NCBI GenBank assembly: GCA_964363205.1
Contig: CAYIHD010000002.1
Location: 13,988-55,020, forward strand
DNA length: 41,033 nt
Direction of reading: 5' to 3'
Origin: an uncultured Candidatus Saccharibacteria bacterium
Lineage (GTDB): Bacteria; Patescibacteriota; Minisyncoccia; Phycocordibacterales; SBAW01
The notes beneath the pieces were generated by a model that saw only the letters and a list, made by a program, of their open reading frames with translations, did no database searches and was not told the DNA's origin. How positions within the stretch are numbered: the first letter of the stretch is position 1; the number at the start of each line of letters is the position of its first letter. Of this stretch, positions 1,191-30,674 are shown one piece after another. Position numbers and translations under genes: made by a program.

Positions 1191-1843
1191 TATTTTGGGT
1201 TGCTGCGTTTTTTGGACTTCCAGCTATCCATGTTGGCGTGGTGGCCGGAGAGGAGGACCTTGGGGACGCGGTAGGGCTTCCCTTTTATTTTCAAAACTTC
1301 CGGACGGGTGTAGATTTCGTGGCTGGCGACGCGCGACTCCTCCAACGACTCAAATTTGCCGAGCACTCCTTTAATCTGCCGCGCCGTGGCATCGATAATA
1401 GCCATCGCCGGCACTTCGCCGCCGGTCAAAATATACGGCCCGACCGACACTTCCTCCGCCTTAAGCGCCTTAACGGCGCGAGCATCAATCCCCTCGTATC
1501 GCCCGCAAATAATAATCACCTCTTTAAGTTTAGAAAGTTTTTTTGCGTAAGCGTTGGTAAAAGGCTTCCCTCCCGCCGCCGTCACCAAAACTCGGACATC
1601 GGATGTCCGAGTTTTGGTCTTGATTTTCTGGACGGCTTTTATGACCGGCTCGGCGCGCAGGACCATGCCGGGCCCGCCGCCGTACGGCCGCTCATCAACC
1701 TTGCCCCACTTATTCCCCGCCGTATCGCGGAGTTGGTAGGTCTTAACCTTAAGCAGCTTCTCCTTCTGTGCACGACCAAGTATCGACGCCTGCGTATAGG
1801 CCTCAACAACTTCGGGGAAGAGTGTAATCACGTGGAAGTTCAT
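1190..1843 (-). CDS. trmD: tRNA (guanine37-N1)-methyltransferase TrmD
   Basis: Contains the motifs RPYGGGPGMVL, ICGRYEGIDAR, LTGGEVPAMAIIDA and LLSGHHA. 217 aa. Confidence 0.95.
   Translation of the reverse strand: MNFHVITLFPEVVEAYTQASILGRAQKEKLLKVKTYQLRDTAGNKWGKVDERPYGGGPGMVLRAEPVIKAVQKIKTKTRTSDVRVLVTAAGGKPFTNAYAKKLSKLKEVIIICGRYEGIDARAVKALKAEEVSVGPYILTGGEVPAMAIIDATARQIKGVLGKFESLEESRVASHEIYTRPEVLKIKGKPYRVPKVLLSGHHANMDSWKSKKRSNPK
1584..1618. repeat. REP-like perfect palindrome, copy A (inside the trmD CDS)
   Basis: ACCAAAACTCGGACATC-G-GATGTCCGAGTTTTGGT has 17-bp arms. The same core occurs at 21186-21212, 21746-21778 and 22436-22472. It encodes TKTRTSDVRVLV within TrmD. Confidence 0.9.
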
Positions 1844-9806: not shown

Positions 9807-10709
9807 TTATTTTGTAAGTTTTGCGACTGCTTTTTGTATAAGAGGAAGCATGTCTTCGTAAAAGTTGAGTTCGAGCGCGTCTGCGAGCCTAAACCAGCGC
9901 GCGTCGTCCAGCCCGCCCTTTTGCTCGAGCTTGACCTCGGCAAACGGCGACTCCGCCAAAAAGTAGGTGACGTGCTTGCGCTTTTTGCCGGTCGCCGGGT
10001 CGCTCGCGACGTACTCGTTCTCCCCTATCTTTTCGATAATTTTTATATCAAGGCCGAGCTCTTCTTTTATCTCGCGGATGGTGCCCTCCTCTGTTGTTTC
10101 CTTGGCTATCTCCGGAGCATCGCCGATTTTGCCCTTGCTTAAAGTCCAGTGGCCGAAGATGTCATGCACCAGCGCCACATAGACATCCTTGCCCTGCTTG
10201 GCGTAGACGACCGCGCCGCCGAGGCGCTGGACCGGCATGTCGGCATACGGTATGTCCTTTTTCTTTTTTGAGACCTCGTCTTTGCCGGGCTCGCCGAGCT
10301 CTTTGTACACGGCGCCCAAGACGCCGTTGACGAAGCGGCCGGAATTCTCCCCGCCGAAGCTTTTCGCGAGCTCTATGGCTTCGTTGATGGCCACCTTGGC
10401 GGGCACCGCCGCGCGGTCGGCAAAAAGCAGTTCATACAGCCCTAACCGCAGTACATTGCGGTCTACCGGCGCAATGCGCTCGAGCGGCCATTCCGGAGCG
10501 GCTTTAGTTATAACAAGGTCGAGGTCGGTTTGCCGGCCGATTGCGCCGGTGAGCAAAGCTTCCATAAAAGGAAGGTCGCCGGCGGCAGGAGCAAACTCGC
10601 TGACGTTGCGGCGCAGGGCGTCACGGGCAGTATCAGGCGGCAATGAACGGAAGTCCCACTCAAAGAGTGTTTGGAGAACGACTGAGCGTGAGAGGTGCCT
10701 GTTGGCCAT
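9807..10709 (-). CDS. nusB: NusB-like antitermination factor fused to a C-terminal Nudix hydrolase domain
   Basis: Residues ~1-140 are NusB-like (AINEAIELAKSFGGENSGRFVNGVLG). The C-terminal half carries a Nudix box, E-x7-REIKEELGL. Confidence 0.85.
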   Translation of the reverse strand: MANRHLSRSVVLQTLFEWDFRSLPPDTARDALRRNVSEFAPAAGDLPFMEALLTGAIGRQTDLDLVITKAAPEWPLERIAPVDRNVLRLGLYELLFADRAAVPAKVAINEAIELAKSFGGENSGRFVNGVLGAVYKELGEPGKDEVSKKKKDIPYADMPVQRLGGAVVYAKQGKDVYVALVHDIFGHWTLSKGKIGDAPEIAKETTEEGTIREIKEELGLDIKIIEKIGENEYVASDPATGKKRKHVTYFLAESPFAEVKLEQKGGLDDARWFRLADALELNFYEDMLPLIQKAVAKLTK

Positions 10710-11084: not shown

Positions 11085-11345
11085 TTAGGCGTGAGCGGCT
11101 GCTTCTTCTTTTTGTGTGTACAGACCGCAGGCGGCGATGGTGAACGGTGCCGGAATCCAGCCCATGTCTTTGCGCTTGGAGCAAATCGCGTGGCCGGTTG
11201 CCGGACACACGGTATATTTGTGCACCTTGCACGAAGCGCACAAGACTGATTTTCCTTCCTTTTTCGCCTTTTTCATCCGAGCTCGAGACTCCACACAAAT
11301 TGGCTCCCGAGCTAAAGGCTTCTTCGGTAATTCTTCTTTCTGCAC
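11085..11345 (-). CDS. hypothetical Cys-rich small protein (86 aa from GTG 11345, or 63 aa from ATG 11276)
   Basis: Open frame followed directly by a strong terminator. No recognisable family. Confidence 0.45.
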   Translation of the reverse strand: MQKEELPKKPLAREPICVESRARMKKAKKEGKSVLCASCKVHKYTVCPATGHAICSKRKDMGWIPAPFTIAACGLYTQKEEAAAHA

Positions 11346-11400: not shown

Positions 11401-12000
11401 CTATTGTGCCTCGCTTTCTATCATCTTGCAATACGAGCGGCGGTGGATATCGCACAGGCCGAATGTGTTGATTGCCTCCATATGTTTTTTGGTGCCGTAG
11501 CCTTTGTGCCGCGCAAAATCATACTCGGGATATTTTTTAGAAATTTTTTTCATAAACCGGTCGCGTTCGACCTTTGCCGCGATTGACGCCAGCGATATTT
11601 CCGGCTCGTTTTCATCGCCGCGGATAATTGTTTTTTGTCTGTACTCTTTTGGAGCACTCAGTAATCCGTCTAACAACACCTCTACCGTGCGATGTTTTGG
11701 CGCCAAGGTTCTCACTCCAAAATGTACCGCGCGCGCTACAGATTTTGTGATTCCCTTTTTATCAATAACCCGATGCGAAGAAAAGACTACGATAAACGCT
11801 AGTCTTTTCGACTTCACCAAAACTTGCATCTTTGCGTAAATCTCCTCTCTCTTCTTTTCTGAAAGTTTTTTTGAGTCCTTGAGGCCCGGAAAATGCCGGG
11901 CAAAATCGAACGTGGCCGCGACAGCCACGACACCGACCGCAACCGGCCCGGCAAGAGGCCCCCGCCCCGCCTCATCCACCCCTATAATGACGCGCGCCAT
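11401..12000 (-). CDS. rnhB: ribonuclease HII
   Basis: IIGVDEAGRGPLAGPV N-terminal motif. 199 aa. Confidence 0.93.
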   Translation of the reverse strand: MARVIIGVDEAGRGPLAGPVAVGVVAVAATFDFARHFPGLKDSKKLSEKKREEIYAKMQVLVKSKRLAFIVVFSSHRVIDKKGITKSVARAVHFGVRTLAPKHRTVEVLLDGLLSAPKEYRQKTIIRGDENEPEISLASIAAKVERDRFMKKISKKYPEYDFARHKGYGTKKHMEAINTFGLCDIHRRSYCKMIESEAQ

Positions 12001-20361: not shown

Positions 20362-20481
20362 GCATTGCAATATACCACATTTTTTAATAGGGTCAACTTG
20401 CATACTTGACAAATAAATGGCATGATGCTACCCTTGCAACTGCATTATATGACCCACAAAACTACATTCCAGGAGAACGCC

Positions 20482-21180
20482 ATGCGCGTTATAGCCGTTA
20501 TCGGCCTTATTGCCGTGCTTTTGCTCGGCGCGTGGGGCATTATCCAGCTCGCCTTTTTTATCCCTACCTTCCTTAGCAACATAGGCGGTTCTCTTGCTCC
20601 TAAAAATCAGGTAGCTCAAGTTGCCACCACCACCGTGCAGACGCCAATCGTGCAGACTCCGGCGGTTGTCGCTCCGGCGCGGGAAACGCAAAAGCCGGTG
20701 GTTAAAAAGCCGGCCGCCAAACCCGCGGCGGCGACATACGTTGCCAGCCCCAAACCGTACACTACCCTTTACGGCTATCCGGACCTGCAGGTACGCATGC
20801 TCGCCAATCCGAGCGTCGCGCGCGGCGGACAGGTCTCCATACAATTTGTTATCGAAAACGTCGGCACCAACATTGTCCCTGCCAACTGGTTCTTTACTGC
20901 GAGCCTCCCGTACTCGCCGGTCTACACCTATCAGTCGCCTGTTCAGCAGGCGCTGTACCCCGGCGACAAAATTGTTTACACGCTCGGCTATGTCGCGGAC
21001 TACCAATCTCAGTATCAATACGACGGCGGGTACGGTTGGAGTTATCCGTACTGGACATTGGACCAGTCGCAAGCATACGGCCAAATGTCGACCGTCTCTA
21101 TAAACGCCGACCCGTACAATCTTATCTACGAGCTGAACGAAAATAACAACACCGCCGGCATCTCCTACCAAGTCTATTAA
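20482..21180 (+). CDS. membrane-anchored CARDB-like domain protein (232 aa)
   Basis: AGGAG SD 6 nt before ATG 20482. TM helix, Pro/Ala/Lys linker, and a CARDB-like pattern (PDLQV...GGQVSIQFVIENVG...ADPYNLIYELNENNN). Confidence 0.8.
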   Translation: MRVIAVIGLIAVLLLGAWGIIQLAFFIPTFLSNIGGSLAPKNQVAQVATTTVQTPIVQTPAVVAPARETQKPVVKKPAAKPAAATYVASPKPYTTLYGYPDLQVRMLANPSVARGGQVSIQFVIENVGTNIVPANWFFTASLPYSPVYTYQSPVQQALYPGDKIVYTLGYVADYQSQYQYDGGYGWSYPYWTLDQSQAYGQMSTVSINADPYNLIYELNENNNTAGISYQVY

Positions 21181-21181
21181 A

Positions 21182-21212
21182 CCCAAAACTCGGACATCGG
21201 ATGTCCGAGTTT
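21182..21212. repeat. REP-like palindrome, copy B (right arm truncated)
   Basis: CCCAAAACTCGGACATC-G-GATGTCCGAGTTT has 13-bp paired arms (21186-21212). It starts 2 nt after the stop of the CARDB-like gene. Confidence 0.85.
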
Positions 21213-21218
21213 AACTAC

Positions 21219-21275: not shown

Positions 21276-21703
21276 ATGGACAGCAGTGATATGCAGTTGG
21301 CCACCGGAATTTACGGGCCTTTACCCGGACAGTTCCTCATCGATAAGCAGCAGGCTTACGCGCTGAAAGACAACGAAATGAGCGGCATCGTATTTTGGTG
21401 CATGAGTGGCCGTGGAAAAAACGCAGTCGACAAGAAAAACGCCCCTTTGCGGAACAAATTCCCAAACACGCGGTGCAGGCGAGGGCGCAATATGAACGCG
21501 TTCGCATGCACAAATTCTTCGATCGGCTTATGCTCTTCACGCGGAATACCGAGCGCGACGGCGTCATCATCGCTGTTGGCGTTGACGAATTCTGGTACAC
21601 ACTCGCCACCTGGGATGCCAGCACCGAACACGTGTGGATCCCAGAGTTCGATGAGAGCAACCCAGATCGTCCTCGGCTCACGCGAACTTGCCTGGGTCGC
21701 TGA
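21276..21703 (+). CDS. hypothetical protein (~142 aa) requiring a -1 frameshift at A_AAA_AAC (21416-21422)
   Basis: Frame 0 begins with a strong SD and ATG. Past ~21420 it becomes non-protein-like and runs through a terminator and REP copy C. The -1 frame is protein-like and stops at 21703, 8 nt before an intrinsic terminator. Confidence 0.5.
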
Positions 21704-21711
21704 TACAACGC

Positions 21712-21735
21712 CCCGCGCCACAAGCGCGGGTTTTT
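21712..21735 (+). terminator. intrinsic terminator
   Basis: CCCGCGC-CACAA-GCGCGGG followed by TTTTT. Confidence 0.7.
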
Positions 21736-21745
21736 ATCCACAAGA

Positions 21746-21778
21746 CCAAAACTCGGACATCCGATGTCCGAGTTTTGG
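21746..21778. repeat. REP-like palindrome, copy C (inverted: central base is C)
   Basis: CCAAAACTCGGACATC-C-GATGTCCGAGTTTTGG has 16-bp arms and lies 15 nt upstream of the RAYT-like ATG. Confidence 0.9.
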
Positions 21779-21792
21779 GTTATACTGATTTT

Positions 21793-22434
21793 ATGGAGCT
21801 GTATCATGTACTCAATCGCGGCGTAGACAAACGGACAGTCGCGCAGGACGAGGAGGACCATGTCCGGTTCATGCACGATCTTTTTGTGATGAACGACAAA
21901 AAAGAAATACTGCACTCGGGGCTTGCAAGTCGGTACGTTGAAGGATCGCGCGACTTGTTGGTGCGCATACATGCATTTTGTCTAATGCCAAACCACTATC
22001 ACCTGCTACTTTCCGCTGCGGTTAAAAATGGCATCCCGCAGTTTATGAAAAAGCTCAACATGGGATATGCGAAATATTTCAATGAAAAATATGAACGATC
22101 GGGTGCGCTCTGGCAAGGAAAATATAAAAAGAAATTAATTGAGCGAGACGCACACTTTTTTTATATTCCTTACTATATTCATCTCAATGCGCTCGACCTT
22201 TCGATGCCACAATGGCGAGAAGGAAAAGTGCAAAATATTTCCAAAGCTTTGGACAAACTCCGGGAATACCGATGGAGCAGCCATCTAGATTATCTTGGAA
22301 AGCCCAACTTCCCGTCCATTACCGAGCGTGAGTTTTTAGCAAGCACTATTGGCACACGTGCGCGATATGAAAAAGAAATAGGAAACATTATTAGCAGATC
22401 AGACATTGCGACAGGTAGTTTCTCGATAGAATAG
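21793..22434 (+). CDS. IS200/IS605-family HUH Y1 transposase, RAYT-like (213 aa)
   Basis: YHVLNRG N-terminus, HUH motif CLMPNHYHLLL, GALWQGKYK, and a Tyr motif YYIHLNAL. TATACT (21782-21787) lies 5 nt upstream of ATG 21793. Confidence 0.85.
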   Translation: MELYHVLNRGVDKRTVAQDEEDHVRFMHDLFVMNDKKEILHSGLASRYVEGSRDLLVRIHAFCLMPNHYHLLLSAAVKNGIPQFMKKLNMGYAKYFNEKYERSGALWQGKYKKKLIERDAHFFYIPYYIHLNALDLSMPQWREGKVQNISKALDKLREYRWSSHLDYLGKPNFPSITEREFLASTIGTRARYEKEIGNIISRSDIATGSFSIE

Positions 22435-22435
22435 A

Positions 22436-22472
22436 GCCCAAAACTCGGACATCGGATGTCCGAGTTTTGGGC
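22436..22472. repeat. REP-like palindrome, copy D (longest)
   Basis: GCCCAAAACTCGGACATC-G-GATGTCCGAGTTTTGGGC has 18-bp arms. It lies between the convergent RAYT-like and gyrB stop codons. Confidence 0.9.
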
Positions 22473-22477
22473 TGGAT

Positions 22478-25146: not shown

Positions 25147-25172
25147 CGCCCAGCTAAGCTGGGCGTTTTTTT
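25147..25172 (+). terminator. intrinsic terminator
   Basis: CGCCCAGC-TAA-GCTGGGCG followed by T7. The T-run overlaps the pheT stop codon. Confidence 0.75.
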
Positions 25173-26970
25173 ATCTTATTTCGAAGCCTTTCGCTTTTAG
25201 GGCGGTGGAGACTTTTTCCATAATTATATTTACCTCCGCCTCGGTGAGCGTGCGGTCAAACGACTGGAAAATAATCCGGTACGCCAGGGAGGTCCGACCT
25301 TCCTTGGAGAAGGTATCGAACAATGAGATTTTGTGAGCCAACTCCCCCGCCTCGTCTTTTATCGTTTGTTGTACTTGTTGTTCGTTGTTTGTTGGCGATG
25401 TCCACATCGCTATATCGCGCACAATGTACGGGTATTTTGAAAAGTGCTCAAAACGCTTCGCTGTCGACAGCGGCAACGCCTCGTAGGCACTTGCATCTGC
25501 CGGTGCCAGTGTCTTTTCGGATGCTTTTTGCTTTTCGGTAATCGTGCCGAGCATCATCGACTCTGTGCCGTCTTTCCAAACAGTCCCTATCTCAAATAAT
25601 TTAATTTCTTTAAGCCCCAGCAAATCTTTGTTCGGCTTGTTTTTGGCAAGAGCCTCCGTAAGCCCCGGCACCAAACTGTCACGCAAGTACGGTCGTACCG
25701 AGTCGACCTTGTTAAGCACCATCCGCTCGCCCTTGTCCGCAAAGACGCTCGTAAACACTTCCGAATAGCCCTGTTGCACCAACTCCTCGCGCGCGCGCTC
25801 AGCCGCAAAAAAATTCTTATTTATCTCTGTAGACATTCCATGTCTACAAGCAGGCAGAGGCACGGCGGGGATTCTGTCGTAGCCGACGATACGCCCGACC
25901 TCCTCAACCAAATCTTCGGGAATACTCAGGTCGAGCCGCTCAAACGGCACCGTTACTTCGAACACACCCTCTTGCTCTTTGTACGGCAAGCCAAGCCGCA
26001 CAAATACGTCGGTGATGTCCGCACCGGTCAGCCGGGTGCCGAGCACTTTGTTTACTTTCTCCACGGTGACATTGGCGTACATCGGTTTTTGCGGCTCGGG
26101 GTATGCGTCGACAAATCCCGCCAATTCGCCGCCGGCGAGTTTTTGTATAAGCTCAACCACCGACTGCATACCAAAGGCCGCGAGCTCCGGAGATATAACC
26201 TGCTCGAAGCGCGTCGATGCATCGGTGCGCAACTTGAGAGCGGCGGCGGTCTTGCGCACCGACACGCCGTCAAAGTTAGCGGACTCGATGACTATATCCT
26301 TGGTAGATTCGTCTATAGCAGCCGGCATGCCGCCCTTAACGCCGGCAATGCCCACCGGCGCGTCTCCTGCGGTAATCACCAACATCGAGTCTTTGAGCGT
26401 GTAGCTTTTTTTATCGAGCGCAATCATGACCTCGTCGTTTTGTGCGGCGCGCACACCAAGGGCAAGGCTACCGAGTTTGCCGGCATCAAATGCGTGCAGG
26501 GGCTGGCCGAGGTTAAACATGACAAAGTTGGTCGCATCGACAACGTTGTTGATAGAACGCTGACCTATGGCCGCTAAGCGCTGTTTGAGCCACTCCGGCG
26601 ACGGCCCGACTTTTACCCCTTTGATATACCCCGCGATATACCGCTTACAGAGAACGGTTCTCTGTATATCGACCGTAACCTCGGCAGTTTTAGGCAGTAA
26701 GTCAGACTTACCGGAAAGCGGGTCGTTGGCGAGAGGAATTTTTAAAATAGCCGACAATTCTTTGGCGATGCCGCGATGGCTGAGGCAATCGTGTCCGCGG
26801 TTCGGCGTCACCTTAACATCCAGCACCCAATCTTTGGGAGAATCTGATTCTCCCACTTTTTCTATACCGTCTATTTCAAAAGCATGAAAGGTGAGCGCGT
26901 CTGCAAGCGTCGATGCATCGGGCAACGGTGCGTCAAAAAATTTATCCAGCCAAAGCTTGCTTATTTTCAT
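25171..26970 (-). CDS. pheT: phenylalanyl-tRNA synthetase beta subunit (599 aa, lacks the N-terminal tRNA-binding OB-fold domain)
   Basis: MKISKLWLDKF...VTPNRGHDCLSHRGIA. B3/4, B5 and ferredoxin-fold anticodon-binding (FDX-ACB)-like regions are present. Start is ATG 26970. Confidence 0.9.
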   Translation of the reverse strand: MKISKLWLDKFFDAPLPDASTLADALTFHAFEIDGIEKVGESDSPKDWVLDVKVTPNRGHDCLSHRGIAKELSAILKIPLANDPLSGKSDLLPKTAEVTVDIQRTVLCKRYIAGYIKGVKVGPSPEWLKQRLAAIGQRSINNVVDATNFVMFNLGQPLHAFDAGKLGSLALGVRAAQNDEVMIALDKKSYTLKDSMLVITAGDAPVGIAGVKGGMPAAIDESTKDIVIESANFDGVSVRKTAAALKLRTDASTRFEQVISPELAAFGMQSVVELIQKLAGGELAGFVDAYPEPQKPMYANVTVEKVNKVLGTRLTGADITDVFVRLGLPYKEQEGVFEVTVPFERLDLSIPEDLVEEVGRIVGYDRIPAVPLPACRHGMSTEINKNFFAAERAREELVQQGYSEVFTSVFADKGERMVLNKVDSVRPYLRDSLVPGLTEALAKNKPNKDLLGLKEIKLFEIGTVWKDGTESMMLGTITEKQKASEKTLAPADASAYEALPLSTAKRFEHFSKYPYIVRDIAMWTSPTNNEQQVQQTIKDEAGELAHKISLFDTFSKEGRTSLAYRIIFQSFDRTLTEAEVNIIMEKVSTALKAKGFEIR

Positions 26971-26972
26971 AT

Positions 26973-27698
26973 CTAAAATTGATTGATGAACCGCAGGTCG
27001 GCGGAGTGCATGTACCGGACGTCGTCTATCCCCCACTTAAGCATCGCCAAGCGGTCCAGCCCCATACCAAACGCAAACCCCTGATATTTTTTAGGGTCGA
27101 TACCGGCGTTTTTGAGCACAGCCGGGTGCACCATGCCGGCACCCATCATTTCTATCCATTTGTCTTTCAACTTTTCCGGAACCGCATCACCCACCAGTCG
27201 CATATCCACCTCTACGCCGGGCTCGACAAACGGAAAGAAGCTCGGACGAAAGCGTATTTCCACCTGCGCGCCTTTAAACATATTTTTTAAAAAGGATTCG
27301 AGCGTGCCCTTTAAATGCGACAGAGAAATATCTTCCCCGACCACCAACCCTTCTATTTGCGTAAACTCCGCCTCATGTGTCATGTCGGTCGCCTCGTTGC
27401 GGAAGACTTTGCCGGGGACAATCACGCGGTACGGCGGTAGGGCGCCCTTTTTTATCTGCGACTCCATGTAGCGCACCTGCACCGGAGAGGTGTGTGTGCG
27501 CAAAACATGCTCCGGCATATCCTTTATAAAAAAAGTGTCCTGCATGTCTCGGCTCGGATGGTCCTTCGGCACGTTGAGCGCGTCAAAGTTGTACCGCTCG
27601 CTCTCCAGCAGAGGCCCTTCGGCGAACGTAAAGCCCATATCAAAAAATATTCTGTTGGCCTCGCGTATAAGAGATGCTATCGGATGAATACTGCCCAT
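26973..27698 (-). CDS. pheS: phenylalanyl-tRNA synthetase alpha subunit, N-terminally short (241 aa; alternative TTG start at 27728)
   Basis: Contains HPSRDMQDTFF, FRNEATD.THEAEF.Q.EG and GAGMVHP. Confidence 0.9.
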   Translation of the reverse strand: MGSIHPIASLIREANRIFFDMGFTFAEGPLLESERYNFDALNVPKDHPSRDMQDTFFIKDMPEHVLRTHTSPVQVRYMESQIKKGALPPYRVIVPGKVFRNEATDMTHEAEFTQIEGLVVGEDISLSHLKGTLESFLKNMFKGAQVEIRFRPSFFPFVEPGVEVDMRLVGDAVPEKLKDKWIEMMGAGMVHPAVLKNAGIDPKKYQGFAFGMGLDRLAMLKWGIDDVRYMHSADLRFINQF

Positions 27699-30601: not shown

Positions 30602-30674
30602 AGCCGGGGGAGGGATTCGAACCCGTCGGCCAACGCATTACAAATGCGCTGCTCTACCTCTGAGCTACCCCGGC
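30602..30674 (-). tRNA. tRNA-Thr (anticodon UGU), no encoded CCA
   Basis: Hand-folded: acceptor GCCGGGG/CCCCGGC, D arm GCTC-AGAGGTA-GAGC, anticodon arm GCGCA-TTTGTAA-TGCGT, T loop TTCGAAT. The T stem needs one bulged C (GA[C]GGG / CCCTC). Confidence 0.8.

Follow-up and report, generated by a model that had tools for sequence, protein, structure and literature searches.

A translated REP-type palindrome in trmD of a candidate phyla radiation bacterium, probably acquired by loop replacement

The palindrome located at positions 1584–1618 of the stretch of DNA analysed here (41,033 nt in full, hereafter the window), inside the gene for the tRNA (m1G37) methyltransferase TrmD, is most probably a translated intragenic copy of a repetitive extragenic palindromic (REP) element. 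The copy belongs to a family denoted REP-1 and would have entered the one permissive segment of TrmD by replacement, with its cognate enzyme, similar to the REP-associated tyrosine transposases (RAYTs), encoded 20 kb away. The host, an ultra-small groundwater bacterium, had been ascribed at first reading to the candidate phyla radiation (CPR), and this attribution agrees both with the nearest homologues, which are labelled Kaiserbacteria, Adlerbacteria or Paceibacterota, and with the origin of the samples, 0.1 µm filters of Hainich groundwater.

The element in trmD, copy A of the family (minus strand), is a perfect 35-nt palindrome with 17-nt arms and a 1-nt centre, ACCAAAACTCGGACATC-G-GATGTCCGAGTTTTGGT, and it lies wholly and in frame within the minus-strand open reading frame (ORF) at 1190–1843, i.e. 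trmD (217 aa). It codes for residues T75–V86 of the protein (TKTRTSDVRVLV), placed between the GGGPGM (55–60) and CGRYEGID (113–120) motifs of the window TrmD. Read on the coding strand, the palindrome has a C at its centre, which falls on the wobble position of a Ser codon. None of the six frames of the REP-1 element contains a stop codon, and the peptide KTRTSDVRVL is obtainable from either orientation. Both the in-frame palindrome and the identical peptide from the two strands had been reported in the first-pass annotation, and both observations were verified, together with the frame and the motifs. When the 35-mer was searched for with ≤3 mismatches three sites were found in the window, compared to 0 expected from window shuffles. 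For the RNA hairpin at copy A an energy of −38.1 kcal/mol is predicted across 81 nt (z −5.2), compared to −17.8 kcal/mol (z −6.9) for the corresponding DNA hairpin. An Rfam search of the whole window returned only a tRNA at 30602–30674, with no match at the copy A hairpin. An intrinsic terminator within the trmD mRNA was considered as well and ruled out, as in the sense direction the stem lacks a trailing T-run or U-tract, and the terminator-like tail is found on the antisense strand only. There, on the plus strand at 1584–1628, the REP stem is followed by the T-rich sequence CTTGATTTTC, in a manner resembling an intrinsic terminator.

The identity of the host gene was established via several independent models. 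The window protein matches Pfam PF01746 (E 7e-40, 137 bits against a cutoff of 27), NCBIfam NF000648 (PRK00026; 227 bits, cutoff 220) and TIGR00088 (220 bits, cutoff 195), and it aligns with TrmD chains in the PDB at E 3e-47. The 217-aa ORF is intact with every conserved motif present, and the protein is presumably active. As one contig holds four copies of the repeat family, an assembler misled by repeats could in principle have placed REP sequence in trmD, and the evidence on this point is at the level of assemblies rather than of individual reads. Still, such a chimera is extremely improbable. The 654-nt trmD is found with 0 mismatches in L081 (sample ERZ1292617) and L082 (sample ERZ1292618), which are separate assemblies of replicate Hainich groundwater 0.1 µm filters, and the palindrome is unchanged in both; the concern about assembly support that had been raised at first pass is thereby met. 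Moreover, the reading frame and all TrmD motifs are intact, and typical reads are longer than the 35-nt repeat.

Copy A has three further relatives in the window, since a search based on the 14-nt arms returned four REP-1 copies in the 41 kb against 0.28 expected. Copy B (21185–21213), with perfect 13-nt arms, is intergenic and located 5 nt past the stop of a CARDB-domain ORF (20422–21180). Copy C (21745–21779, 16-nt arms) is situated 14 nt upstream of the start codon of the RAYT-like gene, which spans 21793–22434 on the plus strand and encodes 213 aa, while copy D (22435–22473 with 19-nt arms, or 22437–22471 by the arm search) is found between this gene and gyrB, the stops of which converge. 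Taking the latter coordinates, copy D begins 2 nt downstream of the ORF at 21793–22434. The positions of copies B and D, after the CARDB ORF and between convergent stops, respectively, are typical for REPs. Copy A matches C and D over the 16-nt arms, and 38 consecutive nt (CAAGACC...TTTTGG) are common to copy C and the coding strand of copy A. The existence of a REP-like family, proposed earlier for this DNA, is in this way substantiated: copy A is a member, and other copies flank a gene for a Y1 (RAYT-like) transposase. All four copies are singlets within the 41 kb, not REPIN doublets. A miniature inverted-repeat transposable element was ruled out as the identity of REP-1, as each copy consists of a single 33–35-nt hairpin with no non-palindromic body, and a target-site duplication was observed at none of the four. 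A search of viral contigs with the REP-1 pattern gave 0 matches.

The enzyme encoded between copies C and D is a Y1 (HUH) transposase, with the HUH motif NHYHLLL and the tyrosine motif YYIHLNA; it matches Pfam Y1_Tnp (E 9.5e-11), and its HUH region aligns with ISDra2 TnpA. Its score against the IS200 NCBIfam model, 17.6 bits, is lower than that against the REP_Tyr_transpos model. The family comprises 2928 relatives at E ≤ 1e-10, and the few of these with named sources are labelled Patescibacteria, Paceibacterota or Kaiserbacteria. The order sortase–CARDB–small ORF–RAYT–gyrB is kept in 11 related contigs (L179–L189), in which the DNA around the locus is about 81–83% identical to the window and the RAYT gene is bracketed by an identical 33-nt REP, CCAAAACTCGGACATC-c-GATGTCCGAGTTTTGG. 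Taken together, the sequences point to a unit of REP/RAYT type, the enzyme gene of which is inherited vertically at a fixed locus. Two further observations were made around this gene. The region at 21276–21788, between copies B and C, contains two overlapping frames (21276–21788 and 21395–21703) with no Pfam match; the split ORF at 21276–21788 may represent a frameshifted gene, and the ORFs found at this position in relatives are small (54 to 154 aa). In addition, the gene calls of three database RAYT models (P0121, P0122 and P0166) extend into the flanking REP, and REP-encoded peptides (PKTRTSDVRVLG, QNSDIRCPSFG and GTRTSDVLV) appear at their N- or C-termini; these peptides are probably the result of mis-annotation.

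The nature of the event in trmD was further studied via comparison with orthologues. The string TRTSDV is present in 1 of 120 TrmD orthologues (77–92% identity), namely the window's own protein, P0001, and the peptide of the palindrome is consequently absent from every other member of the set. An alignment of 36 orthologues (82–92% identical) displays one hypervariable stretch, between AVQKI and [KR]V[LI]V-TAAGG, and the sole other internal indel, end extensions aside, is a 5-residue insert in P0037. The length of the TrmD loop varies from 9 to 35 aa across orthologues, with 13 aa in the window and short loops (≤11 aa) in 47 of 115. TrmD of Haemophilus influenzae aligns across the stretch with a 1-residue gap and that of Staphylococcus aureus with a 3-residue gap, so that the earlier statement on the spacing from GGGPGM to CGRYEG holds. 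In an AlphaFold2 (AF2) model with a mean predicted local distance difference test score (pLDDT) of 68, residues 64–78 form a helix, 79–82 a turn and 83–94 a strand. Residues 75–86 map to the helix end, the turn and the strand start, and the palindrome is thus predicted to code for the end of the helix, the turn and the first four residues of the strand. In combination, the variable alignment stretch, the gaps relative to the PDB chains and the position in the AF2 model reveal that the element resides in a segment tolerant of length change.

A simple insertion at this site was ruled out, as excision of 33 or 35 nt would either cost the protein its conserved V-L-V strand or disrupt the frame. 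More specifically, excision of the 33-nt core would leave I-K-M-T-A-A-G-G, with loss of the near-invariant V-L-V strand, and plain insertion is therefore excluded. The trmD gene of L176, 82% identical to that of the window, has a loop without a hairpin that reads ATC ACA AAA AAC AAA TCA CAA AAA ACA AAG GTT TTG GTT ACG, and the last 8 nt of the right REP arm, GTTTTGGT, are identical to the native V-L-V host codons of this element-free gene. The window loop is one codon longer than that of L176 and 3–4 codons longer than the shortest loops. On these alignments the event appears as a loop replacement rather than a simple insertion, with a net gain of +1 to +4 codons, and the V-L-V strand seems to be shared by junction overlap with the REP arm rather than overwritten. 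The first-pass annotation, which had proposed that the element replaces sequence rather than adding length, was accordingly right in this respect, with the addition that the start of the strand is now coded by the element.

We propose that the resident lysine-rich loop of TrmD would have been replaced by a REP-1 copy, instead of REP-1 being plainly inserted. The segment thus occupied would comprise the end of the helix, the turn and the first residues of the strand leading to the S-adenosylmethionine (AdoMet)-binding TAAGG loop. Element and host would share GTTTTGGT on the right side, such that the REP arm may now provide the codons of the V-L-V strand. The change would be tolerable given the lack of stops in the six frames and the location of the sole asymmetric base at a Ser wobble position, and the peptide from the frame in use would begin with a polar turn (KTRTSD) and continue with VRVLV, which is compatible with a strand. 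The hairpin itself presumably serves no purpose in trmD. As for its delivery, the copy could have arrived by the action of the RAYT, or another REP copy may have served as the partner in recombination or in template switching guided by microhomology.

The loop was subsequently compared at the DNA level in 14 distinct TrmD loci, window included. A hairpin with perfect arms of ≥6 nt is present in 11 of the 14, and arms of ≥7 nt in 10; no hairpin was observed in the loops of L002 and L086, which are the two shortest, or in that of L176. The loop of L083 contains a palindrome with 15-nt arms, CCAAAATCAGACATC-c-GATGTCTGATTTTGG, carried by three independent sources, which begins after the same AAG ACC AAA A as that of the window but is read in another frame. 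Different hairpins are found in L001 (TACCGAGGTT-g-AACCTCGGTA) and L169 (TATCAAGGA-gag-TCCTTGATA); L170 has an L169-type hairpin plus a second one, and L172 has TAGCAAGG-actac-CCTTGCTA plus two small hairpins. The L174 and L087 loops contain 24-nt perfect palindromes, and arms of 8, 7 and 6 nt are seen in L166, L167 and L173, respectively (7 nt in L173 if a longer hairpin loop is allowed). By sequence comparison, at least five or six unrelated hairpin types appear to occupy one and the same TrmD loop across relatives.

The hairpins in L001, L169, L170 and L172 are members of a second family, REP-2 (TAYCRAGG..CCTYGRTA, with the peptide module PR[FL]NLG), of which the window has an intergenic copy at 401–421 (TACCAAGGA ctc TCCTTGGTA). 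Besides intergenic regions, REP-2 is found in the coding sequences of TrmD and RNase HII, where it is in frame, and its copies differ from genome to genome by compensatory changes. The L169 trmD hairpin recurs identically about 1 kb off (centre to centre), in an intergenic position some 600 nt downstream of trmD (10221–10241 and 11246–11266), and differs from the REP-2 copy of the window by one compensatory pair. It would seem, at least in L169, that the intragenic copy carries the version of the family present in its own genome.

The comparison also bears on whether trmD could have carried the palindrome ancestrally or could itself have given rise to the family; in either case the match to REP would be secondary. 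The resemblance of GTTTTGGT and, loosely, of the left end to the native loop-end codons of L176 would fit such an origin, as would the related L083 palindrome at the same codon and the possible remnants in L166 and L167 (AAGACTAAA..TCCGAT; AAAACTCG..ATGTC). The proposal that the L166 and L167 loops are decayed REP-1 remnants was set aside, however, as the strings in question (AAGACyAAA, TCCGAT and AAAACTCG..ATGTC) are too short to call. An ancestral palindrome is moreover difficult to reconcile with the occurrence of its peptide in a single orthologue of the 120, and with relatives of ~82% identity that keep identical REP-1 copies at the RAYT gene, given that an equally divergent trmD in the same sample is hairpin-free. 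The loci concerned, L179 (RAYT and REP-1) and L176 (trmD), are both ~82% identical to the window and may derive from a common genome. As REP-1 is furthermore located in the RNase R gene (rnr) of another genome, and a variant in a sortase, an ancestral origin appears highly improbable, and a REP-1 copy acquired by trmD remains the preferred reading.

These intragenic copies outside trmD are likewise translated. The RNase R gene of L174 contains an in-frame REP-1 copy (L174:1404–1436, on the locus minus strand) that codes for KTRTSDVRVL, which replaces DGIPAD for a net change of +5 aa. The centre base on the coding strand is G in this gene and C in the window trmD, and the same peptide results from both orientations because this base is the wobble base of the Ser codon. 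No microhomology is evident at the L174 rnr site. The same RNase R has two further perfect-hairpin inserts, with 14- and 24-nt arms, and the perfect-hairpin inserts recorded in RNase R besides REP-1 have arms of 9, 14 and 24 nt. The L187 and L179 contigs are 98.8% identical, but their sortase linkers differ (L187:573–595 versus L179:3625–4242): the L187 sortase carries a compensatory REP-1 variant, ACTAGGACATC c GATGTCCTAGT, in frame, giving the peptide NTRTSDVLV and a shorter linker than that of L179. The locally divergent flanks suggest that the L187 sortase is an imported allele. In the RNase HII of L176 (L176:70–88), ACCGAGGTT-g-AACCTCGGT encodes SPRLNLGR with the length of the protein unchanged. 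The RNase HII gene of the window (11401–12000, minus strand) has a segment at 11780–11809 with 10-nt arms and a 10-nt loop, KSKRLAFIVVFSS; this segment is divergent, and its length is as in relatives.

More generally, perfect arms of ≥7 nt were found in 11 of 28 lineage-specific inserts in housekeeping genes, a strong enrichment compared to 61 of 1710 control coding segments, and the window contains 14 perfect hairpins with arms of ≥9 nt where Markov-1 simulations give 2.1 ± 1.5. Two in-frame hairpins are found in pheT (25171–27036, minus strand) at lineage-specific changes. The one at 26835–26855 (minus strand; TGGGAGAATC a GATTCTCCCA) coincides with a lineage-specific 5-aa insert, SDSPK, and its inserted arm approximates an inverted copy of the upstream host codons, a similarity that suggests a fold-back duplication. 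The other, at 25828–25848 (minus strand; TGTAGACAT gga ATGTCTACA), corresponds to a lineage-specific replacement, ACRHGMST versus A-FSGEV, with a gain of 2 aa (CR). A third perfect in-frame pheT hairpin is located at 26646–26666. Additional hairpins were noted close to trmD, namely a perfect one with 14-nt arms at 2090–2121, between trmD and khpA, and an imperfect 36-nt palindrome at 1155–1190 adjoining the trmD stop codon. Two near-identical terminator-like hairpins, CCGGAGCAC(TT/CC)GCTCCGG, each with a T-run after it, are present at 348–365 and 1046–1063, the latter directly after a DUF5680-like ORF.

That this one loop holds hairpins, unrelated in sequence, in 11 of the 14 loci would also be expected if the hairpin were selected for a function in trmD expression, e.g. 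a ribosome pause before the knot-forming strand, an RNase site or an antisense block, and had been acquired convergently. Such a role is consistent with the very stable RNA stem, with the T-rich, terminator-like tail that follows the stem on the antisense strand, and with the palindromy of REP-2 being kept by compensatory changes (TACC..GGTA versus TATC..GATA versus TAGC..GCTA); REP-1 likewise displays compensatory differences between the window and L083. Nevertheless, we regard it as improbable. The hairpin is dispensable, because many loops are short (≤11 aa in 47 of 115 orthologues) and L002, L086 and L176 do without it. Furthermore, the same sequences are found in intergenic regions and in the unrelated proteins RNase R, sortase, RNase HII and PheT, the sense strand has no U-tract and no Rfam family is matched.

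A different question is whether the RAYT took any part in the event, or whether template switching or microhomology repair copied REP-1, or folded back, between the ends of the loop, which are complementary in part (ACAAAAAAC ... GTTTTGGT). Delivery in this manner is supported by the replacement itself, with its 8-nt junction overlap on native host codons, by the RNase HII segments SPRLNLGR, VPARFNLIT and VAATFDFAR, reported to be of equal length, and by host-derived arms elsewhere: the inserted pheT arm resembles inverted adjacent host codons, and one arm of a 49-nt palindrome in L174 rnr resembles the host residues D-K-Q-N-G-P-Y. However, the interior 19–21 nt of copy A are identical to the copies flanking the RAYT gene, so that a REP template is still needed. 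Clean additions without a host-derived arm are also observed, e.g. 39 nt in L083 rnr and a 31-nt palindrome within a 33-nt insert in L174 rnr, and the rnr site lacks obvious microhomology. As a full account of how the trmD copy arrived, a route independent of the RAYT consequently seems rather unlikely. Still, with regard to the final step, the replacement and the junction overlap fit better with template switching or recombination with a REP copy than with RAYT insertion, and for some of the other hairpins, such as that in pheT at 26835–26855, fold-back duplication is the better fit.

A translated REP-1 copy that replaced the TrmD loop remains the most probable explanation, and several observations weigh against it. 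The known activity of Y1 transposases is the insertion of DNA rather than the substitution of host sequence, and because of this the observed replacement is unexplained by the canonical mechanism. The top NCBIfam match of the enzyme, REP_Tyr_transpos NF047646, is at 40 bits (E 3e-10) where the curated cutoff is 80. The flanks of copies B, C and D lack a GTAG/CTAC or CGTC/GACG tag, and the CGTC beside copy A corresponds to host V-T codons. The visible REP-1 copies are four in number, within the 41 kb examined, and an allele from the same species with the trmD site empty was not encountered. Between genomes sharing only ~82% identity the conservation of REP-1 is 100%; since it is invariant over this distance, its perfect identity is no proof of a recent event. 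Finally, the L083 palindrome is located at the same codon, related but different, and both repeated targeting and an old, homogenised insertion fit this finding.

Extending the argument beyond trmD, it is tentatively conceivable that in Paceibacteria the loop indels of housekeeping proteins stem mainly from small hairpin elements, comprising REPs tied to a widespread RAYT-like clade as well as fold-back duplications, which act by replacement of loop segments. Intragenic copies would be matched to the version of the respective genome, and the TrmD loop would be a hotspot, either targeted or refreshed from the REP pool. If true, this would amount to a process like that of the Rickettsia palindromic elements (RPEs), with the difference that the enzyme is identifiable and the mechanism traceable. 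CPR bacteria have tiny genomes with poorly understood sources of variation, and hairpins of REP/RAYT type are here found translated in essential genes (TrmD in the window; RNase R and sortase in relatives). The many hairpins at one loop of a ~90% conserved protein form a natural series, usable for studies of REP movement, of insertion versus replacement and of how proteins absorb such elements. On a practical level, these hairpins can mislead gene callers, as seen from the several database RAYT models that run through REP, and they inflate the apparent loop diversity of marker proteins.

REPs have been reported inside coding regions in several species, including in tRNA-modification and repair genes, and in two Xanthomonas species recB carries different REPs at nearly the same place; the authors consider non-disruptive insertions to be the only ones that survive, and they relate intragenic REPs to the Rickettsia RPEs (Di Nocera et al. 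2013, BMC Genomics 14:522, PMC3733652). The first-pass statement that no in-frame palindromes of REP/RAYT systems were known is contradicted by this work and stands for CPR only: the literature searched, with incomplete coverage, contained nothing relevant on REP or RAYT in CPR/Patescibacteria. The Di Nocera intragenic REPs are similar to copy A in that they are short, RAYT-associated palindromes in frame in genes that include those for tRNA modification and tRNA synthetases. They differ in that the element described here lacks a GTAG/CGTC tag and resides in a CPR/Paceibacteria host, in that host codons are replaced and a conserved β-strand is supplied by the copy, and in that at least five or six hairpin types are found at one loop and one REP peptide in several proteins.

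The RPEs, reportedly described by Ogata and colleagues in 2000, share with the present case the presence of in-frame, translated palindromic repeats in housekeeping genes of a small genome, with orthologues lacking them. However, RPE-1 is about 100–150 nt long, whereas REP-1 is a perfect palindrome of 33–35 nt linked to a RAYT-like gene; to our knowledge RPE-1 has no known cognate transposase, and the RPEs have no sequence relationship to REP-1. In Escherichia coli, with REPs arranged in bacterial interspersed mosaic elements (BIMEs) and TnpA-REP, and in Pseudomonas, with REPIN–RAYT, the RAYT gene is single-copy; these systems were reportedly characterized by Nunvar in 2010, Bertels and Rainey in 2011, and Ton-Hoang and Messing in 2012. 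Similarly to the system described here, they combine a vertically inherited Y1/HUH gene, flanked by hairpins that are presumably recognised, with copies just downstream of genes. In contrast, the present copies are singlets and perfect palindromes, the enzyme scores below the NCBIfam RAYT cutoff and intragenic copies are prominent. Quasipalindrome template-switch mutagenesis, known from the work of Ripley and the Lovett laboratory, makes perfect hairpins in place, with one arm copied from the other. It would account for near length-neutral replacements and host-derived arms but leaves the interior identity to distant REP copies unexplained, and we mention it solely as one route by which the copy might have been delivered. 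In comparison to these systems, what is new is the host group, the combination of an untagged REP and a divergent RAYT-like enzyme, the geometry of the replacement, the variety of hairpin types at one loop and the occurrence of one REP peptide in several proteins. The phenomenon as such is already documented in Proteobacteria and Rickettsia, and the findings represent an extension of it rather than a new principle.

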